A stretch of DNA of 54,466 nucleotides, the filler included, from Diploschistes diacapsis (lineage: Eukaryota): assembly GCA_023645945.1 (NCBI GenBank). It is 4 parts of 4 records of this genome, joined end to end, with 100 filler letters (N's around TTAATTAATTAA, not from the genome) between each part and the next. Parts side by side here need not be neighbours in the genome. Positions count along the whole stretch, not along the records: positions 40,935 to 54,466 come from JALAIB010000650.1; 3 more parts are not named here. One strand, 5' to 3'. The position numbers were made by a program, and so were the translations under genes. This document shows positions 13,556 through 54,466 of the stretch, piece by piece. Each line of letters opens with the position of its first letter. The stretch's first letter is position 1. Under the pieces are notes generated by a model, which was given only the letters and a program-made list of their open reading frames with translations, had not been told where the DNA came from and searched no databases.

Positions 13556-13655
13556 NNNNNNNNNNNNNNNNNNNNNNNNNNNNNNNNNNNNNNNNNNNNT
13601 TAATTAATTAANNNNNNNNNNNNNNNNNNNNNNNNNNNNNNNNNNNNNNNNNNNN
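13556..13655. other. Artificial contig spacer N44-TTAATTAATTAA-N44
   Basis: Exactly 100 nt with a six-frame-stop palindrome; identical to the other two spacers. Confidence 0.98.
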
Positions 13656-27200: not shown

Positions 27201-27300
27201 NNNNNNNNNNNNNNNNNNNNNNNNNNNNNNNNNNNNNNNNNNNNTTAATTAATTAANNNNNNNNNNNNNNNNNNNNNNNNNNNNNNNNNNNNNNNNNNNN
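27201..27300. other. Artificial contig spacer N44-TTAATTAATTAA-N44
   Basis: Same 100-nt linker. Confidence 0.98.
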
Positions 27301-40834: not shown

Positions 40835-40934
40835 NNNNNNNNNNNNNNNNNNNNNNNNNNNNNNNNNNNNNNNNNNNNTTAATTAATTAANNNNNNNNNN
40901 NNNNNNNNNNNNNNNNNNNNNNNNNNNNNNNNNN
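40835..40934. other. Artificial contig spacer N44-TTAATTAATTAA-N44
   Basis: Same 100-nt linker. Confidence 0.98.
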
Positions 40935-41872
40935 GGAGAGGGAAAGGGAGAAGGAGAAGGAGAGGGAAAGGGAAAGGGAGGCGACGGAGGGTAGTAGGGC
41001 CAGGGAGAGCGGGGGTTCGAGGCCGAGGTAGAAAAGGGAAAAGGAAGCCAAGTGGGCATGTTGCCGTTTTACGCCCGTGGGCTGGGCTGGGGACGACTCA
41101 AGGGCGGGCGGAGGTGGATTCTTTCCCTTGACTCTTATAGCGCTCGAAAACGAACCCTTCTCGAAGGATGCGTGTTTTTGCCAAGACTGGCCCGCAAAGC
41201 GAGACACGGGAAGCGCCCCTTCTTTGTTTGGGGCGGTCGAATGCGAGTGAGATACACCTTCTTTCTCTAGGAGGTGCGGAAAGGGTTATGGGAAATCCCT
41301 TTTCCTATGCGAGTGTGCTTTGACGTTCCATAAACATGCTATGGGAGATGAAGCTGGCCACACTTGGCCGGTTACAAAGCGAGACAAACAATTGAAGTAG
41401 CTTGTGGTACGGAAGTGCTTTCATATTTTTCGCCACTCGGACCCGCCGCCTTCCAGGTGCATCCGAACTTTCCAACCCTTAAACAATTACTGGAGACTTT
41501 TCTCCCTTGCCGTCCGTTACCCGGCTGCCGTGTGGTATCTAGAGAATACAAACAACCTCCCTCGAATCCCTCAACGCGCTTCTTGAATCTTTGAAGATTG
41601 GTCCAAGGCAAGTAGGAAAAGTAATCGCCCGTGGTGATGCTGCGACACCGCCAAGCCTGCCCAGCCGGACCGCAAGGCCCCACCGACTCCGTGTCCGCAT
41701 TCAACCATCTAGATGCGCCCGCGTTCTTCCACGATTAGTCCATTAGGCGGCGAGATATCGCCGATAGAATAAAGACAGCTAAGAAAAGGCCGTCAGGTGG
41801 TATCATTTGCGCAGCAAAACCCACAGTCGAAATAAAGTTGCCAAAGCATGAAAACAGCAAGTCCCGCACGGA

Positions 41873-43440
41873 TCATTGTGACGGCTCAGGATATTCAGAT
41901 CCTTCCGATAGTCGGGAGCGCTTCGGGTACGGCGAATCGTGCGAGTCGGTGTGAGTGGCATTCCCATCAAGCTCTCGTTTCAAGTTGCTCGGCGAGGAGT
42001 GATTCCGCATTTCCATAATCTCCCTTTCTGACTCTTGCAACCTTCGACGAAGGCCGTTCTCCCTAGCTTGAGCTGCGTTGTGAGCCTGCCGATGCAGCAT
42101 GTCGTTGCGTTCGAGCTCCGAGATGCGGTCCTTGTAGAGGCCGTTGATGACCTCCAGCTCACTGACCTTCGTCCTGAGGGTGGTGTTCTGTTGCTGAAGA
42201 TAGTCGTAGGTTTGGGGAGGCTCCAGGTGCTTGTCACCGATCGAAGCCGCAGGAGAAGGATGCCTGAAATGTAAAGATGGAAGGGAGGGAGAGCGCCCTG
42301 GCCCAAAGGTCGGATCTGTCAATGGGCCGCCGTCGAACATGTGCGGAGGAGCGATACTGTGGTGAAGAGCAGGGGTATTGGCGCGTGAGATGGGGGAGTT
42401 CGATCTGTCAGAAGCACCTGAAGACTTTCCCGACACGCGACGGTAGGCCGGAGGAGGCGTTCCATCATCCGATCGTGCACGCGGGGCGCCATTGCTTAGG
42501 AACGAGGGCTGGATGGAGGTCAGACCTTGGCATGAGATACAACGGGTCAGTTTGACGGACCTTCTTCTTCTGAGCATGACCGGAGCTCTTGATTCGATTG
42601 CGGCTCTTGATGACATCGGTCTTCAAGCTTATCGGGCGAGGCCTACCATGAAGCTTGAGGAACAGCCCACAGGCGTTGCACAGGACGGATCCGATCTCGT
42701 CCCGGCGCCAGAGGGGAGTCGTTGAGGTTGCGCAGTTTTGGCATACGGGCTGTAGATCAGAACGGCAGTTGTCAGTCAAAGATGCCATGGTTCAAGTGGA
42801 TAATCATAGCAAGATACCTGTTCACGGGATGGTGACTTATCACGGACGTTTGTATGTATGGGGAAGATAAGAGTTTCTTGCCCGGGTAGATAAGGATAGG
42901 TGAGGATAAGGCTAGTGCAAGGGCATAGGGGGCAGAGGCAGGCTTGGCACTAACTTGGCAACATACCGGATTGGAACCATGTCCACCCACCGAGGTTGGT
43001 GTTGGGGAAGCCGTAAGATTGAGGCCAGAACCGGCTCCGCCGAAAGTCCTGTAGCATATTGAATCAGCCCCGGTCGAGACTGGACCAACTTGAGCATGGC
43101 ACAGGGAAAATAGCTTGGAGAAGAGAGATGGTTGCTCAACGTACCTCATGTGCGGTGGTGAAGGACCCACCGCCACAGAAGCCAATGTTGAAAGTCCTGG
43201 CAGAGAGACACTATTCGCAGAATTTGGCTTTCCATTTAGGTACAAGGCATTCGAGGCCTGAGTTGAGGCGGACGAAGGTCTCGAAATTTCGTGACCGATC
43301 GGTGGGAGCGGTGACGGAGCTCTATTGTCGATGTTAGGCCCCATATTGATCGGCGGGAGACTTCTGATCATTGGATCGGGGCTGGCTCGCAGGTCAAGGG
43401 GTGCCGACCCGTGCAAGATGGGAGGGAGTATTAAAGCCGT
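41873..43440 (-). CDS. areB: GATA transcription factor AreB/Asd4/NreB (GATA finger + leucine zipper). Long form exons ~43440-43145, 43048-42967, 42749-42561, 42508-41873; short form starts at ATG 42788
   Basis: [52 protein letters not shown] and zipper [26 protein letters not shown]. Splice sites GTACGT, GTATGT and GTCCGT with CAG acceptors keep the frame. The 5' start is uncertain. Confidence 0.88.
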
Positions 43441-43799
43441 TGTGGCGGTTGTTGATATTGACGCTCGGATGAGCAAGTTGTGTGATTTTTATTGAAGGAG
43501 AGACGTGCCGACGCTTGATAGTTGTTGTTCCACCTCTTTTGTATGTGTTTTGCTGTGCTCTGCTCGATTAATGATGAATAAGTGGATGGTCTGAATCTGT
43601 TCAGACAAGCGAGACTCGATCCATATGGAGTTGGCAAGTGAATGTCGATTATTAAAAGAATTAAAAATCGAGCCAGATTAGAGAAGTAGTAAGATATGAT
43701 TATAAAGATGGCAAACTGAACGAAGGTGATAATGATAATAGAGAAAAGAAATGAGTGAAAGAATGACGATGAAATATAGGAATGAGTGTCGAGATTTGG

Positions 43800-43880
43800 A
43801 TGTGGAGGAGATGGGAGATGGAGGAGAAGAAGAAGAAGAAGAAGAAGAAGAGGAGGAGGAAGAGGAAAAGGAAAAGGCGG
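43800..43880. repeat. (GAA)n/(GGA)n purine tract (pyrimidine tract on the areB sense strand) in the areB upstream region
   Basis: gagaagaagaagaagaagaagaagaagaggaggagga is read directly. Confidence 0.8.
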
Positions 43881-43945
43881 ACCGACGGTGATGTTACGCG
43901 GCGCGCGATAAGGGGCGGGGCTTTTCCCTTGGGGTGTGTACAACG

Positions 43946-44040
43946 GGGTGTAGGTGTTTAGGTATAGGTGTTTAGGTATAGGTGCTTAGGTATAGGTGCT
44001 TAGGTGTAAGGTGTTAGGTGTTAGGTGTAGGTACAGGTGT
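43946..44040. repeat. Degenerate tandem repeat of TAGGTGYT/TAGGTA units (~14-bp period) upstream of areB
   Basis: taggtgtttaggtataggtgtttaggtataggtgcttaggtataggtgcttaggtg... Confidence 0.8.
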
Positions 44041-44865
44041 GCGCCCCCCGGATGGAGTAGTAGGAAAACTGAGGATATGCCCCGGGAGCAAGTTGAACCA
44101 ATCTCTAGTGGTATTCCGTACTCTGCTACTCAGCCTTCCTACTCGACAGCAAATCTGGCCTATCAGCTCCCTTGGTTCTGCATCCATCGGCAATTTCGGA
44201 TGCAAGAAGCTACAAGTTCAGAAGTACAGCCCATCCCGCCACATATACAACGTACTTCTTCGTCGTAGTCGATAGCAAAGCCGGGCAAGTCACAAAGGAA
44301 CAGGGCAGGCAGACCAGGTATTTCAGCGCCATTTGCCAGCCGAAGTCTCCTCCTGAACTTTTGTTGACGGACGATGGCCGCCTCAGAGAGAAGGCTGCTA
44401 TATGGATATAGGAAGACAAAGCCACACAGTTCGATCAGAGACATGGAAAAGCGACTTGTAATTGAACATGGGCAGAAACCCTGAGCCCATCACGACCCCT
44501 AACTGAGGTCCCCGCAGGTCTTGTTCAGAGCTGACCTTCACGGCATTGATACAACAAGTCGCTGGTGGATCCCAACTGGTGGTACCCAAGCATTTTTCGT
44601 TAGCCAGAGACACATTGCAAGCAGCTGGACATTATGGCCCCTGCGGAAGGCCAAGGGCCTCAAATACATGGTTAAATAGCAAGCATCTATCAAGCTTCGC
44701 GACCAGTGGTACTATCCAGCAATATCACGATGGCGTTCGCGCTTTCCGCCCTCAAGCATCTCAACTAAAGCCCAGTCCGAACGGATTGGCCGCAATACTC
44801 TTTCCTTTTGGGTGAGAGCTCCAGTCGTACCTTCCGACCAAGGCTAGTCCATGATGCAACCCGAG

Positions 44866-46361
44866 TTATTGCTCTGTATAAAGTTGTTCGGGTCGAAGAT
44901 CAATCCACTTTGGTAGCGGCGGCGAGGTTTGAAATGACTTTGGGCTGAGCTCACTGTTCCATTTCTTTAACCACTCGTCGTAATTCCTTACACGGCTCTG
45001 TTCGAGCACTTGCTCTACATCCCATGAACCACCAATAGGGAAGTTGCAGCGGACGATTGACCTTCCTTCTATCATGTCCCCGACAGCTTGCGGAAGTGCT
45101 TCGAAGATGTAGCATGAATGGTCCCTCCTCTCCTCGGTAGACCGGGTCACAGAATTCTGGATGCACCACTGATCCAAAGCGGCTTGCCACGCAGCGTCTC
45201 GTTTCACAATTTCAAACACCTGGGCACTTCGATCGGGGATTCCATCCCCGTCAAAGACTAGAGAGAATGAAGTTGCAGGCATGCCAGCAGATTGTAGGGC
45301 TAACGCTTCCGTGATCCGAACACCGAAGGAACTGCTGATATCCTCGGAACGCGCCTCGTGGAAGCCATGATCCTCAGGGTCCCAGCCAGGGGTAACAAGG
45401 TCATACAATGTCGCAGAAGACCCTGCTGGTAAAACGTTTCTCCATATGCTCACACGGCGCTCAATATGAAGCCGTGGGATTTTCCAAGCAGAATGGAACG
45501 AGGCCCAGTGCATGGCTTTCTGGACGCGCGACAGACTCGTGGTCTTCACATAGCAGTATATTCCGTATCTGGAGGCGCGTGCTATCTGGCATAGAAGTGA
45601 GGCAACGGATCGCTACTGCGGCTGCTGAGAAACGGTATTTGATACGCTTCCAGAAATCCTCGTCGGGTTCGTATTCGTCCGCAACGAAGAACAGATTCTT
45701 ATACCACTCCGCGACCTTCATCTTCCGAGGGAAAGGCCCAGGGCGCGGGGTTCATGGCTAGCAGTGGTAGTGGCACTGAAAGAGAGTGATGGATGAGGGC
45801 CAGATCCATGGCTTTTTCGTAGACGTCCTCAGACCATTCAGGTTGTGTGGGAAGAAGCCCCAATGTGAAGTCAACAAATTCACGAAAGACGGAGCATGGC
45901 TCACCCCATGATTTGTCGTTTAACAAACAAGACGACGAAACCGAATCAATCATTTCATCGAGAATTGGCTGAAATTGTGGATACTTGCGAGCCCACCTTG
46001 GCAGTCACTTCTGAATTAGCATAAGAGCGGGAGGGGCATCAAGCAAACTATCTCGACTTTTTGGCTAGACCGATCCAAGTCATTATTCTGTGGAAACGGC
46101 CGGCCTGCCTTTATGCGTTCAGGTTCCGAGTACACGGTCGAGAAGGTGATGGTATTTGTTTCGACAGCGAGGCCATGCATTTTCTGCCGCGACAGATGTG
46201 CTTGTATACATCAGGGCTAGGTCGACTGGCCGGTTGTTGGACGCCCGGAATTTGCCCGATTCGTAGTTGAAATGGTAGCCATCATTTCCGAGCACGTAGT
46301 AGTGATAGACGATATCCCGCACCTCTCTGGGGAGGCTGAGAAACTGTGAATGTGAAGACAT
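44866..46361 (-). pseudogene. Frameshifted fungal hypothetical gene with N-terminal F-box-like motif
   Basis: MSSHSQFLSLPREVRDIVYHYY..VDLALMYT..VAAE, followed by collinear fragments in different frames (IKYRFSAAAVAIRCL..LRNILLCED..VARPESHALGLVPFCLENP / RLHIERRVSIWRN ... VRCNF). At least three frame breaks. Confidence 0.65.
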
Positions 46362-47950
46362 CTTCCCAGTCTGGGAGGCGAGTGCTGGAGATTCCTGGCG
46401 GGCTGGGAACGTAGAAAACGATCTCGGCAGTGATAGCTTGTGCTGGTGAATTCTGGGGATTGCAGTGGCAGCTGGGCGAGAAGGTTGCGCAGTAATTAAA
46501 GAACTAGAAGAGAGGTGCAATAAGATGCAGAAGACTGAGCAGCTATTATTGCTGACCCAGGACCCAGGCCCTATATAGCTTATAGCCTTCCTTATATATA
46601 CATATACCAGGCTTCAGAGTCAGCTGTTATAGGGTTAAGGGTTAAGCCATTTTGCATTATTATTATTATTCTAACGTTAACTTAGCCTATCTACCCGTCA
46701 TAACCATCGTCTTCGAAGCTCTTGGAATGCTTCTACACTCCAACATTTTCACCCATCAAATCTCAGGCTTCTATAACCTTTAGAACTAATCTCTTCCAAG
46801 TAAGGCATTGGATAGTGTTGATAGGGACTCGATAGAACTTCGTACCTTTTATCATGACTGCGGTGCAACAACGCACTAAATTAATGAGCATTGTCTCACA
46901 TTGAAGAAATAATAACTCGCATATCTTACGGCCATCAATGGACGGTGCCAAATGCGCCAACTTCGTCATCTGTCAGGACTGAAGCACATCAGGATGTTTG
47001 TTGTAGGTATACTTACAATAATCCATACCCGGACCGTCGCAAAGCATGTGCTGGAACTTGCCAGTGAAGCGAAAAGATTAAATGTTTTTAATCTTTTTCG
47101 ACGATAAATTCGAGTATGTTATGATTCCGATATCGATAATCAACCGTTAATAGAAGATAGCGATTTCCGTTTATGCTATAATTTACAGTTTGAATCATCT
47201 CTTTTCGGAAATTTTTGGCTTATGATTATCGCTAAAATCTCGAAAGCGGAATATAAAAGAGAAACGAAGCTGTTGCATCAGGTATTAAAAAAAATGGAAT
47301 AAAGACAAGGATTTTAGTCGTGCAGAGGTTGCCTTTTTCGAATTATGACTTTTAGGATTGGACGTCGGTGGTAGAAGGCCTGCGCGTACATTGCCATATT
47401 GATTAAGAGCTTTATTCCCAATCAATCAATTAGCGGAACCTTCAGTGGTATAAAAGATTATACCTACGGTTGACGAAGATGGGGGTTTGCTAGCCTAAGA
47501 TATTTAGTCAGTAACTATATGTAATAGATCGGCGTACAATAAACTACAGAATTGGAAACTGATTGGGAAACAAAAAACGCTTGTTTAATAAGAAATCGTA
47601 GACTTAAAAATTAAAAAGATTGTACGAGACATTATATGGTCCAAACTTGTAAGCGGTAAAGGAGATTTAAAGGTGCGCTGATATAAAAACTCACAGATGC
47701 CAGAGAGACGAAAGATGAAGGAATGTACCTGCTTGAAGGTTATATTAGCCGCCAATTGTTGCAAATCTGTTTCACAGAAGTATATGCTTACCTGTATGAG
47801 ATTGTACCTAGAGTTCATTAGGATGTCGAGACAACAAAATTGATCATCGATAAAGCCACACAAATATTTCACACAAACATGTCCATAAGTAACAAAAGCT
47901 GGAATTGGAAAGTGCGCTGGCGCTCGCTCGAGCATACTATACAGACTAAA

Positions 47951-50349
47951 CTATACAGCTGCAGGTAATGACTCAATGGCAAACCGATTTGGAACATTTT
48001 TCTTGGTCCACTCGAATTGCTGCAGTCCAAAATGATAAATGGCCCACTCCATGGCAGCACCGGCGTCGCAAGTCATCAATTTCTTCATGTTCGTGTGACC
48101 TACTACATGGATCAACGCAGACCTTGCTCCATGCAGCTTTCGGCAATGACAGAAGAGGTGCTCCACAGTGTGCACTTGGTTATCTCCACAGTCACACTTA
48201 TCAGAATCGACAATCTATGGCGTAGAGAAAAGGTTAGCCCAGTCAATAGCGTCCGCAAGACTTAGAGGACATACCGGATGCGTTCGGCGTATTGCACGAA
48301 TATAGATATTTTCTCAGACCGTTGACACCCGTCCTGCAGTGCAGTAGCATGGTGCTTTGTGCTCGAGACAAGCGTTTATAGTAGTTGAGGCTCTTGGGTC
48401 CCCATTCCTCAAGTAGGGCTGGCCGGTCTCTGCTCTTATACATGATCGGCTTCCGATACGTCTCCCATAATCGTGAGCTCTTTTCCTCGCTCCATTTCTT
48501 GATGAAGTCGCTAATAGCTTCTGCTCGAGTTTTTTGCATTCGCCCACATCTCGGCCACTTGGTCAGGGGTGTATCTTTTCTTTCAATCTCTCGACAAGCC
48601 TCGTGATGAACTAATAGTGCATGTTTTGCAAGCACGTGATACGGGTGAAGTGCTAGACGAGATGCTGATTGTCTCCTGTGCAGGCCAGTTCCTGTCTGTG
48701 GGAGACTTGAACGTTATAGATGATAGGTGTTTCTCGTTCAGGAAGATCGCATCTTGGGAATCAAGTGTTCGAGCCCGGAAAGCCGTTGCAGTGCGGTACA
48801 GATACAGCGCTATGAGCTCAATATGACGCTCTTTTAGCAGGTATTGACGTGAGGTCCTCTTGTAGGCGCCAGTAATCTGTATGAGACACTGGTACTGCAA
48901 CGATTCCAGCCCACAAATCAACTTTTGGGAGATTGCCCACTTGACATTTCTGCCGTAAAGATACCATACTGCACAGCCGAAACCGATAATGGGTCGCACT
49001 TTTGAGAGAAATAGCCACCTCATTTGAATAAGTGTGGGACCCCAGGTAGAGCCGGAGATCCGCTTAAAGTAAGTCATCTGTTTCCACACTTTGTGCTTTA
49101 TCTTGCAACCTCTGTTAGCATAAAGTCCAATAGTGGAGTATTGAGAAAGCTACCAGCGCTACATGGGCAGACCACTTGAGCTTGTGGTCTACAACAATGC
49201 CCAGGATACGAAGTTGCGTCTTCAACTGTTTGGCCTTGTCGTCCAGTCCAGGAATCTCGGGAAGTTCGCCGTAGGCATCGCCTGTGATTCCGGGCTGTTT
49301 AAAATGCATGACCGCATATTTAGACGGCTCGAATATGACACGATTTTCATCAGCCCAAATCATGATTTCACGATGAAGTACCTCCATCATGCGGTTGTTC
49401 TCGGCATGGCTTGGTGAGGTTACAACTAGGTACGTATCATCCACGTAGGCAAGTACAGCCACACTGGTTCCGAAATCTAGGCGACTGGCGCAGCGATCGA
49501 TAATGGGCGATGCGAAGAAGAGGAATAGGATAGGTGACAAGGTGCTCCCCTGCGGTATACCCACATTTGCCCAGAATAATCGCGTCGGGGAATGTCCTGG
49601 CATCCCGAGAGTTGTACAGCGATTAGAGAGGAATGACCGCACGAAGTGTATGGTCCAGTCGGGTTATTCCTTTGTCCACAAGAACTTCAAGTAACTTCGT
49701 TCGATCAACCGGATCGCAGGCTCCCTTAATGTCAAGGCTCAGTAAAGTCGACTGCTGTATGTTTTTTAAGCACCAGCCCCTGTATACAGGATTGAGGAGA
49801 TATTGGAGGGCTTTCGTAGTACATTTGCCAGTGGCTCCACATTGCGTGCGGGCCAGGAGACTGTGCTCGGGACTGACTTCTTTCAGACGGTTGGCCACGA
49901 TACTTTCAAGCAATTTGCCAAGCGACGACAACAATGCGATAGGCCGCCAACTCTTGGGGTGGTTGTAATTGTCCTTGTCCGGTTTTCGTAGTACGACGGT
50001 TTTGGCCTCCTTAAACAGGTTGGGATCGTAACAAAGGGCCAGGCAAGCCGTGAACAAGTGTTCCAGGTGTGGTAGAAGAGGATCTATGGCCCACTTGAAG
50101 ATCTCGTTCGGGACACCGTCAGGTCCCCGCTGCTTTGCCGGTCTTCAAAGCTTCGGCCAGCATCTTGACCTCGCCGCGCCTGAGAGCTTGCAATGACTCA
50201 TACTGTGGACGCCGAGGATCCAATTCAGGAAGGGAAACCAGTTTGGGCTCATCGTCACTTGTATCTGGCCAGATTGAGTCCCTGAAGCAACGAGCCTTGG
50301 CCTCTCCCGTCGTATGCGCCACGCCATCGACGATGAAACCGGGCATATG
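47951..50349 (-). mobile_element. Decayed Tad1-clade non-LTR retrotransposon ORF2 (RT + C-terminal CCHC), endonuclease region missing, with two intron-like insertions
   Basis: KAAG/PDGVPNE, KTVVLRKPDKDNYNHPKSWRPIALLSSLGKLLESIVANRL, LSLDIKGA, GIPQGSTLSPILFLFF, YVDD, FEPSK, LRILGIVVD.KL.W, GSTWG, ITGAYKRTS, LLHCRTG..GLRKYLY, CDCGDNQVHTVEHLFCHC. Frameshifts near 50125, 49665, 48630 and 48280. Confidence 0.9.
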
Positions 50350-50472
50350 AGGCGTTTTTGTGAAAGGCCCTTGCAATGCGGTCACTGCTCGGAACTACAT
50401 GACACAAGAGACTGTGACAAACAGTTGCCAAAGAAGTGTGCCAATTGTCAGAAAAAGCATGAGGCTTGGTCG
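50341..50472 (+). mobile_element. LINE ORF1 (gag-like) zinc-knuckle fragment, inverted relative to the adjacent RT
   Basis: GHMRRFC...CGHCSELHDTRDC...KCANCQKKHEAWS, the triple-knuckle pattern of fungal Tad1-type ORF1. Confidence 0.75.
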
Positions 50473-51048
50473 TTGCCTAGTCCAATGGACTCCTCTGCGG
50501 CCGAAAGAGCCTACAAAGGTGCTAAAGGATATAAACGTCGCATTGAAACTGTATTTGGACGAATGGATCAAAATTTCGGAATTGAGGAAAGCGATTCGGT
50601 AGCTAATTCGGTAACAACATCGCCGGCAGTATCCACTTGTGGGAGAGTGTTTCTGATGCGGGACTCTAGGTAGCTACATATAGGAACCGAATCGTTCAAT
50701 AACACGGAAGCTGTCCGTATGACTATCATTTTGGTCAATGTTATTTATTGTATACAGGAACTGTGAATATATTTACAACCTGAGAGCGATGATATGTGAC
50801 CGACCGACAATGACTGACTGCGCCCGTGAGCACTCGACTTAGATACTAGGAAACAAACACCTGAACAATATTAAGAGAGTGTTAGATGCCCCCCAGCTAC
50901 CTACTTGTGTAGGTAAGGGTAGTTGCTGATTCTGGTAGCTATCAAAATAGTGAGCTCTTTCTTGATACATGCTTTCAGAGTTCTGCAAAAGCACCATGAT
51001 GCCCCTACTGTCTCGAGTCGCTCAGTAGCCGCATCAACCTGGGTTAGC

Positions 51049-54000
51049 ATGGCATCCATCAAGCCCATAGAGGGTACCTCCGTATGAAACGTTGTGCATC
51101 CTGACGGTCAGCTCATTGATTGACATGGAGCTAGGTCCATCGGATCCAATCCGGCCAAGTTATTGTCGATCTGTGTTCCGCAGTCAAGGAGCTGGTCGAA
51201 AACAGCTTGGATGCTGGTGCCACATCGATAGGTGGGTAATTCTACATCATTAGAAACGTTCTGTGTGAGGGAAGTGACCGCCTGCAGATGTTCGGTTCAG
51301 GAACCACGGCCTTGACGCCATCGAGGTGCAGGACAACGGATCCGGCATAGCAAAGGAGGATCACGAGTCCATCGGTCAGTTCCTACTTGCAACTTATAGA
51401 CACCACATCGGGCTATACCGACGGAATTGCAGCTTTGAAGCACTATACGTCCAAACTCAAGAGCTACGAGGATCTCGAGACTCTCGATACGTTCGGCTTC
51501 CGGGGCGAAGCGCTATCTTCGCTCTGTGCACTTTCCAACGTGCACGTCACGACAGCCCGTGAGAACGAGGCTCCAAAAGGCACGCGGCTGGACTTTGAGT
51601 TATCGGGCAAGCTCAAGGGCACGTCTGTCGTTGCCGCCCAAAGAGGGACTACTGTTTTTGTTGAGACCATCTTCAAGAACATTCCCGTGAGGCGCCAGGA
51701 GCTGGGCAGAAACATCAAACGTGAGTATGGCAAAGTTCTTGCGCTATTGCAGGCGTATGCGTGTATTAGCACTGGGGTCCGGTTCTCTGTGAGCAACACG
51801 ATGGCAAAGAAGAAGATGAACGTCTTCTCGACAAAGGGCAACAAGTCCACGAGAGAGAACATTGCCAACGTCTATTCGGCTAAAGCGCTTGCCTCACTCG
51901 TTCCGTTGGATCTTGAGTTTGAGATGCACGCAACCTCTTCACTTCGTGGCTCGGAAAACGATCAGTAAGTCCCAAATAAATTTCTTTAGGAACATGCTTT
52001 GACAGCTTTGCAGCCAGGTCAAGATCGTCGGGCATGTCTCTAGGCCTGTGGTAGGTGGGGGCCGACCGCTCCCAGACCGCCAGATGTTCTTCGTCAATTC
52101 CCGGCCATGTTCATTACCACAAGTTTCTAAAGTCTTCAATGAAGTCTACAAGTCGTACAATCTATCTCAATCCCCTTTTGTCTTCGCCAATCTACTTCTT
52201 GACACCCGTATGTGGTCCTTGCGGTGCCGAAGCCTTCCCTCACCCCCCTGACCAGTGCAGATGCCTATGATGTCAATGTATCCCCCGACAAAAGAACCAT
52301 CCTGCTCCATGATCAAGGGGCTGTGCTCGAAGCAATAAAGGTGATTTGTTGCCAGAATGATGCAGAACGTGCTAAAGTTGGACAGACCAACCTTGGTTGC
52401 CTATTCGAGGCGCAACAGCAGACAGTTCCACAGTCAGAGAGAAAGGACGTAAAACTACCCTCTTACAAACCCCTGACGATCAGCAGGCAGCCTACCCGAC
52501 AGGATGAGCAGGAAGCAGGCTCCGCGGCGGATGATGGTAACGTAGAGGAACCTAAAGCTCAAGAAGGTCCTCGGTCTTCCTCTGCCCAGTTGAACCTTAT
52601 ATCGCGTTTTGCAGAACAAAACACTCGAAACAGATTAACGGAGACTAGGCTAGGACAGCCGGCTCTTGAGAAACAGAAGCTTGTTCAAGAAGTAAGAACT
52701 GGGACCGATGGCGAAGATGAGATTGGTAGAGACCGCGGCAATGATCTAGTATTGCCCGCTCGGGGCGTACCACCGTCCGAAGGTACTGAGCTTGAAAGTG
52801 GCGAAATCGAGCTACCCCTTGTTGTGCACCAAGCATCAGCCAAAGATATCGAGCCAGATGCGGTATCAGACAAGATCACAAAGTCCGATGAGCAGATACC
52901 GTCAGTCTCAACCTCTCCTATGAAGCCGAAGCCCGGGGCAGTACCGAATGCATTCGAACGTATGCGGCCGCTGCGTATGCCGGCTCAACAAGCTACTATT
53001 ACTATCGGCAACAAGATAATGACTACCACCATTGGCTCCGAGCCTTCATGTCCTAGACGAACCTCTTCGAGAAGAAAGGTCAAAAAGGGGAAGCTTAGCC
53101 AGTTTGCTAGCTCTTTGAGATCGTTCGCAGCGCCAGGTACCCAAAGGGGTAGGGAGAGTAGTGATGGAGGAGGAGGAGGAGAGGAAGAAGAGGAAGAAGA
53201 GAGCATGTCAGAAATTTCAGATCCTGTAGCTGTCAATCAAGACACGTGGAAGTCTGAGCAGGAGGGTGAGGAGGGTGAGGAGGAAGGTGAGGAGGAGGAG
53301 GAGGAGGCGGAGGAGGAGGAAAAGGGGGAGAAGGTGGTGACTAGTGACGAAACTGAGGACGAAGAGGATGACGATGTGCTTTCGGGCCGACGGGGGAAAA
53401 AGCAAGAGCATGAAGTAGTGGATGTAGAATCAGTCGGGTCTGATGGCGAGTATCTAGACGAGGAAACCAAGAAGAAATGGGAAGATGCCCGTGTCGCAAG
53501 GCTCATCCAAGAAGCAGAAGAGAAAGCCGCTCGTGTATCCCGATCAAGCGTCCAAAGAGCTCAGAAGCTGCTGAAGGGTGCCCACAAAGACTCGACAACC
53601 AAGCTCGTACAAAGCACCTCCACCTCCATCTCTAGCATCTCTCGTCAAGTTCAAACTCTCAACGCCCCAACGTCTTCCCTCAACCATCTTTCCACGGCCA
53701 ACTATGCAGGCACAGGAGAGACGACAACCTCCGCCGAAGAGCGCCTCTCCCTGACAGTTTCCAAGTCCGACTTTGGCCGCATGCACATCGTCGGGCAATT
53801 CAATTTCGGCTTCATCCTCGCCGTTCGCCCTTACTCCATAAACACTTCCTCCTCTTCCACGAGCAATGACCCCTCTGCCGCAACTGAAGACGACCTCTTC
53901 ATAATCGACCAGCATGCCTCCGACGAGAAGTTCAACTTCGAGCGCCTGTCCTCCACCACCACCCTACAAAACCAACGTCTCGTCCACCCGCAGACCCTCA

Positions 54001-54466
54001 ACCTAACAGCCATAGAAGAAGAAATAATTGCCGACAACCAAGCTGCCCTCCTCGCAAACGGCTTCCTCGTCTCCATCGACCCCTCGCACGACACGCCGGT
54101 GGGAAGGAGATGCACGCTCCTCTCGCTCCCCACATCCCGCGAAGCCACCTTCGACACCAGAGATCTGGAAGAACTCCTCGCCCTGCTCTCCGACACACCG
54201 TCCGCCTCCATCTCTACCTCCACCTCGGCCTCCGCGTCCCTCCACCACCAGCCTCGCAACGTCACCAGCGTCCCGAGACCGAGCAAAGTCCGGAAGCTGC
54301 TCGCGATGCGGGCGTGCAGAAGCAGCATAATGATCGGTCGGCCCCTGTCGACTAGGCAGATGGAAAGAGTGGTGCGGAGCATGGGCCAGATTGACAAGCC
54401 GTGGAACTGTCCGCACGGGAGACCGACCATGCGGCATCTGGTGGGATTGGGGGGTTGGGGTGGCTG
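51049..54466 (+). CDS. pms1: DNA mismatch repair MutL homologue Pms1 (PMS2 orthologue); multi-exon, last few codons cut off by the window end
   Basis: [92 protein letters not shown], endonuclease motif [39 protein letters not shown]. Confidence 0.95.

Follow-up and report, generated by a model that had tools for sequence, protein, structure and literature searches.

A truncated ORF2 remnant with two intron-like segments in Diploschistes diacapsis points to a probable intron-retaining family of APE-type LINEs in filamentous ascomycetes

The stretch analysed here (referred to as the window) comprises 54,466 nucleotides of the Diploschistes diacapsis assembly GCA_023645945.1, filler included, in four parts joined end to end. 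Its last part (positions 40,935 to 54,466, from JALAIB010000650.1) carries on the minus strand the remnant of a long interspersed nuclear element (LINE), namely a damaged second open reading frame (ORF2) for a reverse transcriptase (RT) that is interrupted by two intron-like segments. The window holds one copy only of this element, with the following parts:

47951..50349, minus strand: ORF2 remnant, 5'-truncated and frameshifted, with linker, RT, post-RT region and C-terminal Cys/His tail (tblastn, Pfam)
49196..49982, minus strand: RT domain, split by a 1-nt frameshift near 49664 (Pfam RVT_1)
49102..49153, minus strand: putative intron 1, 52 nt, phase 0, GTAGCT..GCTAAC..AAG (sequence, frame restoration, homologues)
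48275..49101, minus strand: exon 2, the post-RT region of about 275 codons; two 1-nt frameshifts, near 48669 and near 48281 (tblastn, HMMER)
48215..48274, minus strand: putative intron 2, 60 nt, GTATGT..GCTAAC..TAG (sequence, homologues, gene models)
47951..48214, minus strand: exon 3, the C-terminal tail with a CDCG..H..C..C motif and the stop codon (aligns to residues 1145-1215 of the relative P0151)

The first-pass annotation had taken the locus for a LINE-type RT, and both profile and protein comparisons bear this out. Pfam RVT_1 matches each of the two RT pieces (residues 55-160 of the ORF at 49623-50144 with an E-value of 2.9e-9, and residues 26-156 of the ORF at 49115-49663 with an E-value of 3e-12). 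In tblastn searches with full-length relatives the RT region is 43-53% identical, and residues 469-1215 of the 1232-residue P0151 map to 50349-47996 in six pieces and three frames. All full-length relatives tested with Pfam (7/7) carry an Exo_endo_phos_2 endonuclease N-terminal to RVT_1; about 470 N-terminal codons, endonuclease included, are missing from the window copy, which is therefore regarded as 5'-truncated. With an N-terminal apurinic/apyrimidinic endonuclease (APE), an RT and a C-terminal Cys/His motif, the full-length relatives resemble the APE-type LINEs of Pezizomycotina, Tad1 of Neurospora and CgT1 of Colletotrichum, and differ from them in having an ORF2 with one or two conserved spliceosomal-type introns. 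An RNase H domain after the RT is usual for the Tad1 clade; by contrast, no RNase H match was obtained with Pfam at E <= 0.01 in the seven full-length relatives, and PF00075 (RNase H) is present in a distant, uninterrupted group (P0189-P0192). No poly(A) or other tail follows the stop at 47951, in agreement with what had been noted earlier for poly(A).

Read along the minus strand, the two segments (49153-49102 and 48274-48215) have precisely the coordinates and letters that the first-pass annotation had given them. Intron 1 begins about 14 codons past the end of the RVT_1 match and has GCTAAC 13 nt ahead of its last AG. Reading through it yields 12 codons and then a stop; its excision joins ...KLKWSAHVAL to IKHKVWKQMTYFKRISGSTWGP in one frame, and unspliced the IKHKVWKQMTYFKRISGSTWGP frame is shifted by one. 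Full-length relatives align over this joint with no residue missing (in tblastn, P0151 up to residue 891 ends at 49130 and from residue 883 on starts at 49104). Intron 2 sits 6 codons ahead of the first Cys of the C-terminal motif, with GCTAAC 18 nt ahead of the 3' TAG. It had been proposed that the reading frame ahead of this second segment ends at GLRKYLY and that a 1-nt correction is needed; the correction is indeed required, but the frame runs on to the GT of the intron as ...GLRKYLYSCNTPNAS(G), and IVDSDKCDCGDNQVHTVEHLFCHC follows the segment. Because a sister copy in the DNA run X2 (see below) is without one base at 48281, we take intron 2 to be a phase-0 interruption: with the extra base discounted it lies in phase 0 and its last codon is a stop. 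At both segments the tblastn homology to full-length relatives breaks exactly, again with no residue missing.

Both segments show the anatomy of U2-type introns (GT..AG ends, some 45-75 nt in length, with CTRAY placed 10-25 nt ahead of the 3' end), their removal restores frame and homology, and their position and phase are conserved. The usual fungal 5' splice site is GTRNGT, from which GTAGCT of intron 1 departs. A gene at 51100-54466 (plus strand), which starts about 700 bp from the element and which we take to be MutL/PMS1-like and to act in mismatch repair from its motifs ..DVNVSPDKR.. and ..HGRPTMRHL.., provided a yardstick for host introns: by eye, its introns measure about 50-57 nt, start with GTCAGT, GTAAGT or GTATGT and contain CTGAC or TTGAC branch sites. 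Judged against it, both segments appear host-like in length and signals.

A HMMER search with exon 2 (window:48586-49101:-) returned 421 matches at E <= 0.001. The counts given here refer to the best 150 of these 421 matches, each standing for a 50%-identity cluster, or 149 after removal of the window's own ORF; all 149 were placed on the contiguous model P0009, and in most relatives the introns were called from ORF boundaries and not from DNA. Homologues that start 0-14 residues past site 1 (the position of intron 1) number 38 of 149, and every other 15-residue bin contains at most 10, except for 26 near-full-length proteins. At site 2 (the position of intron 2), 33 of the 149 end 0-14 residues past the site and 60 extend to the natural C-terminal end. 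Fourteen proteins were known at that stage to be NCBI gene models, and not one of them begins at site 1; sequences from ENA, Logan and JGI look like plain ORF calls and those from NCBI are contiguous. Among 35 proteins with homology ending no more than 5 residues from site 2, 23 go on with V (GTN), and the tails of 16 of the 35 begin with VS, VC or VR, as GTNAGT, GTNTGT or GTNCGT would read. In-frame read-through was found at site 1 in P0010, P0017, P0079 and P0183, with inserts of 16-28 residues that start with VS or VR, contain AN, TN or LT (as GCTAAC, ACTAAC and CTAAC would be translated) and end with Q or K (CAG, AAG); P0001, P0010 and P0025 have the same pattern of insert at site 2. In P0010, P0153 and P0154 (ENA/Logan ORFs of about 1194 amino acids) both inserts (17 + 19 codons) are in frame and stop-free, so that the unspliced sequence encodes one uninterrupted endonuclease-RT protein. 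The named hosts of the relatives are Fusarium, Colletotrichum, Monosporascus and other Sordariomycetes, and single Fusarium species hold several divergent members of the family.

Homologous DNA was obtained by scanning JGI metagenome contigs with an 8-row alignment, which gave seven loci (L001-L007). L001 is homologous to P0009 at 136-510 (frame +1), 558-1331 (+3) and 1405-1662 (+1), with an intron 1 of 59 nt at 511-569 (GCTAGT..GCTGAC..CAG) and an intron 2 of 73 nt at 1341-1413 (GTAGGT..GCTGAC..CAG). In L002, intron 1 has 53 nt (144-196, GTAATA..TCTAAT..TAG) and takes the frame from +3 to +2, and site 2 is uninterrupted. Exons are open on both sides of the segments in L001 and L002 and the codon boundaries match those of the window; since both loci are apparently intact, they would have no whole ORF2 without removal of a frame-shifting segment. 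The remaining five loci (L003-L007) are distant intronless LINEs that are contiguous at site 1. These alignments bear directly on the possibility that coding sequence in decay, or insertions private to this copy, look like introns by chance. The other indels in the window copy and the poor 5' site of segment 1 speak for such an accident, but relatives align over both joints with no residue missing, L001, L002 and dozens of raw ORFs are interrupted at the same boundaries, and splice-like signals stand at both ends of each segment. With just 60 occurrences of CTAAC on the two strands of the window (54 kb; a chance of about 1% per 20-nt stretch) and both positions recurring in homologues, we consider a chance resemblance highly improbable.

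Precise excision is seen where raw ORFs can be compared with gene models (a slash marks the boundary). The raw ORFs P0092, P0157, P0158 and P0159 read ...CHLSKIS/VRFPLQWFTLDDPI-stop at site 2, and the Fusarium solani model XP_065475466.1 (P0160) of the same 90% cluster reads ...CHLSKIS/CTESPRCPC... there. Two Logan ORFs, each on a contig of 4,829 nt and thus probably from one contig, cover both sites: P0195 ends with ...SWKYHVHQ/VRLFLG..stop and P0196 runs from MGYMRKRF... to ...YLYRRK/VCRAIS.... The Colletotrichum models EQB55563.1 and KAF4831474.1 (P0125, P0194) join ...HVHQ/IQQKVN..MGYMRKRF and ...YLYRRK/LADSPMCPCG. A further Logan ORF, P0198, shares 96% identity with P0048, a gene model of F. 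verticillioides, in an alignment of 742 columns, the sole gap being 21 residues (VSQSQ...TMVQ) at site 2. The proposal of two spliceosomal-type introns is thus upheld, since position and phase are conserved in relatives at the level of both protein and DNA and gene models splice at these positions.

Introns at the same positions and phases, which the first-pass annotation had suggested looking for, were found in many homologues, and some members are without one or both. Raw ORFs P0023, P0076, P0053, P0080, P0092 and P0138 cross site 1 insert-free and meet a stop after site 2; L002 and P0183 have intron 1 alone. In a tree of 177 rows built with FastTree from the exon-2 region, members with both interruptions are scattered over most of the tree. 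Its deep branches are in many cases weak and the states are heuristic, so only minimum change counts were used: site 1, scored as present in 51 rows and absent in 30 with 96 left unscored, needs at least 13 changes of state, and site 2, present in 57, absent in 14 and unscored in 106, needs at least 9. Such repeated changes would be expected from occasional copying of spliced RNA. The homologue comparisons demonstrate up to two short, phase-0 predicted introns at fixed ORF2 positions, recurrent in many lineages of the family.

The state of the window copy was assessed by comparing the element with contigs of four DNA runs (X1-X4), of which X1, labelled lichen metagenome, is the best match and may be the source of the window, and X4 gave no matching contig. 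Four frame changes were found besides the segments (near 50125, 49664, 48669 and 48281), two of which, outside exon 2, are given here:

50121..50130, minus strand: frameshift in a G run, GGGG in the window (comparison with X2)
49660..49668, minus strand: 1-nt frameshift between the two RT pieces, which X2 and X3 are without (DNA-run comparison)

The X2 copy is about 97% identical to the window element, is present at single-copy depth and occupies the same locus as in X1, as its contigs continue into the same upstream flank. It is without one base at three of the four frameshifts (48281, 48669 and 49664), as is X3 at 49664, and has a private 1-nt insertion at 49501. At 50125-50128, where in-frame ...KAAGPDGVP needs GGG, the window has GGGG and X2 has GG, so that both copies are out of frame in opposite directions; the difference reflects either a separate slippage mutation in each copy or homopolymer assembly errors. 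We considered the four frameshifts as candidate introns and rejected this, as the frames overlap only slightly and the X2 sequence shows indels of 1-2 nt at these sites. Both segments are retained in X2 and X3, in which the 3' end of intron 1 is CAG (AAG in the window). In X2, 341 bases (47668-48008) are skipped and replaced by 4 other letters, with loss of the last 19 ORF codons and of 3' flank. No intronless copy at >= 80% identity and no joint at either intron border was seen in the DNA-run contigs. In the window's own letters the longest open frame has 188 codons as is, 342 with only the segments removed and 359 with only the indel changes made; with both together, a single open frame of about 700 codons runs to 47951.

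Among the 39 coding differences listed between the window and X2, 10 are synonymous and 29 non-synonymous, and about 12 synonymous ones would be expected given the 30 transitions and 9 transversions among them; 56 further differences lie outside this listing. The flanks have diverged to a similar degree as the coding part. The close agreement of 10 with about 12 suggests neutral decay, and the two copies are decaying independently and are not a gene under selection. To judge from its four frameshifts, its 5' truncation near residue 469 (as numbered in a relative of 1232 residues) and its neutral-looking substitutions, the window copy is a pseudogene, as had been annotated. These data weigh against the idea that the locus is a recently pseudogenised orthologue in a lineage of domesticated host RT genes that gained introns as host genes do. 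A single-copy element, syntenic between X1 and X2, with host-like introns would suit such a lineage; against it stand the neutral ratio of substitutions, the frameshifts private to each copy, the loss of the endonuclease with some 470 N-terminal codons where relatives keep an APE endonuclease, the several divergent members per Fusarium species, and the depth profile of X2, in which extra partial depth suggests further partial copies. We regard this alternative as distinctly improbable. The rvt genes and other domesticated RTs are fungal, may carry introns, have no endonuclease and are single-copy under selection; the family described here is similarly fungal, RT-coding and intron-capable, and differs in that its relatives have an APE endonuclease and that the window copy appears to evolve neutrally.

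We therefore interpret the locus, with a probability of roughly 0.72, as a dead copy, lacking its 5' part, from a family of APE-type LINEs in filamentous ascomycetes that retains introns; the copy would have been reverse-transcribed from unspliced RNA. In intact members, the full ORF2 protein would be made from spliced RNA only. Intron-keeping genomic copies, including the truncated one in the window, would have been reverse-transcribed from unspliced RNA. An unspliced template would in turn imply that the ORF2 protein works in trans, to some extent at least, or uses nuclear pre-mRNA. Members without one or both introns would arise when spliced RNA is copied now and again, and the window copy has since decayed neutrally. 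Of the two origins put forward in the first-pass annotation, a retroelement family that keeps its introns is thus favoured over a domesticated gene, and the passage through unspliced RNA is a step that we infer.

Several observations weigh against this interpretation. The element (at >= 80% identity) is single-copy in X1 and lies at the same locus in X2, so that this locus lends no support to the mobility of intron-bearing copies; neither target-site duplications nor a 3' tail were identified, the ends of the element being unclear. LINE cis preference predicts intron loss, and an engineered intron was reportedly lost during Tad transposition. The raw ORFs P0034, P0054, P0167, P0169-171 and P0175 cross both sites and are intronless. 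Intron 1 has a weak or non-canonical 5' site in each of the three DNA examples (GTAGCT, GCTAGT and GTAATA). That proteins from ENA, Logan and JGI are unspliced ORF calls is an assumption, supported by the read-through in P0010, and an ORF start after site 1 is a heuristic sign of the intron: P0159 and P0161 start there and their 90% cluster mates are contiguous. P0198 is either a spliced transcript or an intronless retro-copy of one. No run on record as RNA contains the window stretch, and splicing rests on inference.

Some of the same observations would agree with real introns in copies that did not spread by retrotransposing themselves from unspliced RNA; such copies could be old relics inherited vertically or duplicated as DNA, could have been mobilised in trans by intronless relatives, or could have gained introns at proto-splice sites after immobilisation. 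The single-copy element at one locus in X1 and X2, the missing target-site duplications and tail, the full-length intronless ORFs that coexist in the family and the exon junctions of L002, which resemble proto-splice sites (AAG/AT, AGA/GT), are compatible with such an origin. It is hard to reconcile with two positions common to lineages less than 50% identical, which would call for many copying cycles, with a window copy that is 5'-truncated yet has both introns, with clusters that contain several near-identical intron-bearing members from different sources, and with the minimum of 13 and 9 state changes, albeit on a weak tree. On balance we think it unlikely, though it deserves to be taken seriously.

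Beyond the intron-retaining LINE family itself, we tentatively propose a splice-switched life cycle for it, as a widespread ascomycete LINE family, a possibility to which we give somewhat less than even odds. Splicing would be inefficient, with the unspliced RNA serving as template for target-primed reverse transcription (TPRT) and the spliced RNA as sole messenger for the complete ORF2; the weak 5' sites of intron 1 would fit inefficient splicing. The enzyme would then act in trans or on nuclear pre-mRNA, contrary to the rule of cis preference, and the recurrent intronless offshoots would mark the copying of spliced RNA. In a few members (P0010 type), where the introns are in frame and stop-free, the unspliced RNA could itself encode the full protein. 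Retroviruses and long terminal repeat (LTR) retrotransposons that are regulated by splicing, of which Ty1/copia is said to offer a case, would be comparable under this model in that one transcript serves unspliced as template and spliced as messenger; here, in contrast, the spliced form would encode the polymerase, reverse transcription would be target-primed and there are no LTRs.

Intron loss is the textbook proof that LINEs move via RNA. A literature search found no report of sense-strand introns in the ORF2 of fungal APE-type LINEs, and since it lacked most subscription journals and Repbase Reports, novelty is unproven. The family is present in the genetically tractable Fusarium and Colletotrichum, so that the questions raised by an APE-type LINE family with the same two coding-region introns across lineages less than 50% identical are open to experiment: which RNA is the template, whether the ORF2 protein acts in cis, and whether the introns help expression, let the element escape genome defence in fungi, or set that defence off. 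For annotation, the introns mean that ORF-based transposon searches cut these elements into three pieces and that gene predictors turn them into 'hypothetical proteins'. Penelope-like elements keep introns after retrotransposition, which one study calls 'highly unusual among retroelements' (PMC8557442); intron retention is there regarded as a peculiarity of Penelope-like elements. The retention of introns after retrotransposition proposed here is shared with them; Penelope-like elements have a GIY-YIG endonuclease and a telomerase-like RT, in contrast to the Exo_endo_phos_2 endonuclease N-terminal to RVT_1 in the present relatives, and their studied intron lies in the 5' untranslated region or pLTR, whereas the introns described here lie inside the ORF2 coding sequence. 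In Cryptococcus, transcripts derived from transposons carry inefficiently spliced introns and are linked to the SCANR pathway (PMC5851062). The weak 5' sites of intron 1 would fit similarly poor splicing; that work concerns a basidiomycete yeast and recognition by host RNA interference, in contrast to the conserved intron positions in a LINE ORF2 reported here.

Two further features flank the remnant:

50340..50650, plus strand: inverted ORF with two C-x2-C-x3-H-x4-C/S spacings, adjoining the 5' truncation point (ORF 50278-50673)
47792..47879, strand not assigned: dispersed repeat of 88 bp, lying 72-159 nt past the stop (DNA-run contigs and depth)

The spacings in the inverted ORF resemble gag-type zinc knuckles, and its junction with the LINE remnant is also found in X2. 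The ORF gave no Pfam family, no match to the fetched family proteins and no homologue in a large protein database, so that its identification as a fragment of ORF1 inverted by twin priming was unconfirmed and set aside; it may be an inversion caused by twin priming or a relic unconnected with the LINE, and its membership in the element is uncertain. For the 88-bp repeat, a second X1 contig matches that stretch alone, and the summed depth in X2 is 550-1100 as against 75-90 in the surroundings, and numerous loose ends lie at its two borders; the repeat may be the 3' terminus of the LINE, shared with other copies or with elements resembling short interspersed nuclear elements, or a separate small repeat. 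Elsewhere in the window there are six runs of 44 N, in three pairs about 13.6 kb apart (13556-13655, 27201-27300 and 40835-40934), which resemble masked stretches and not assembly gaps.

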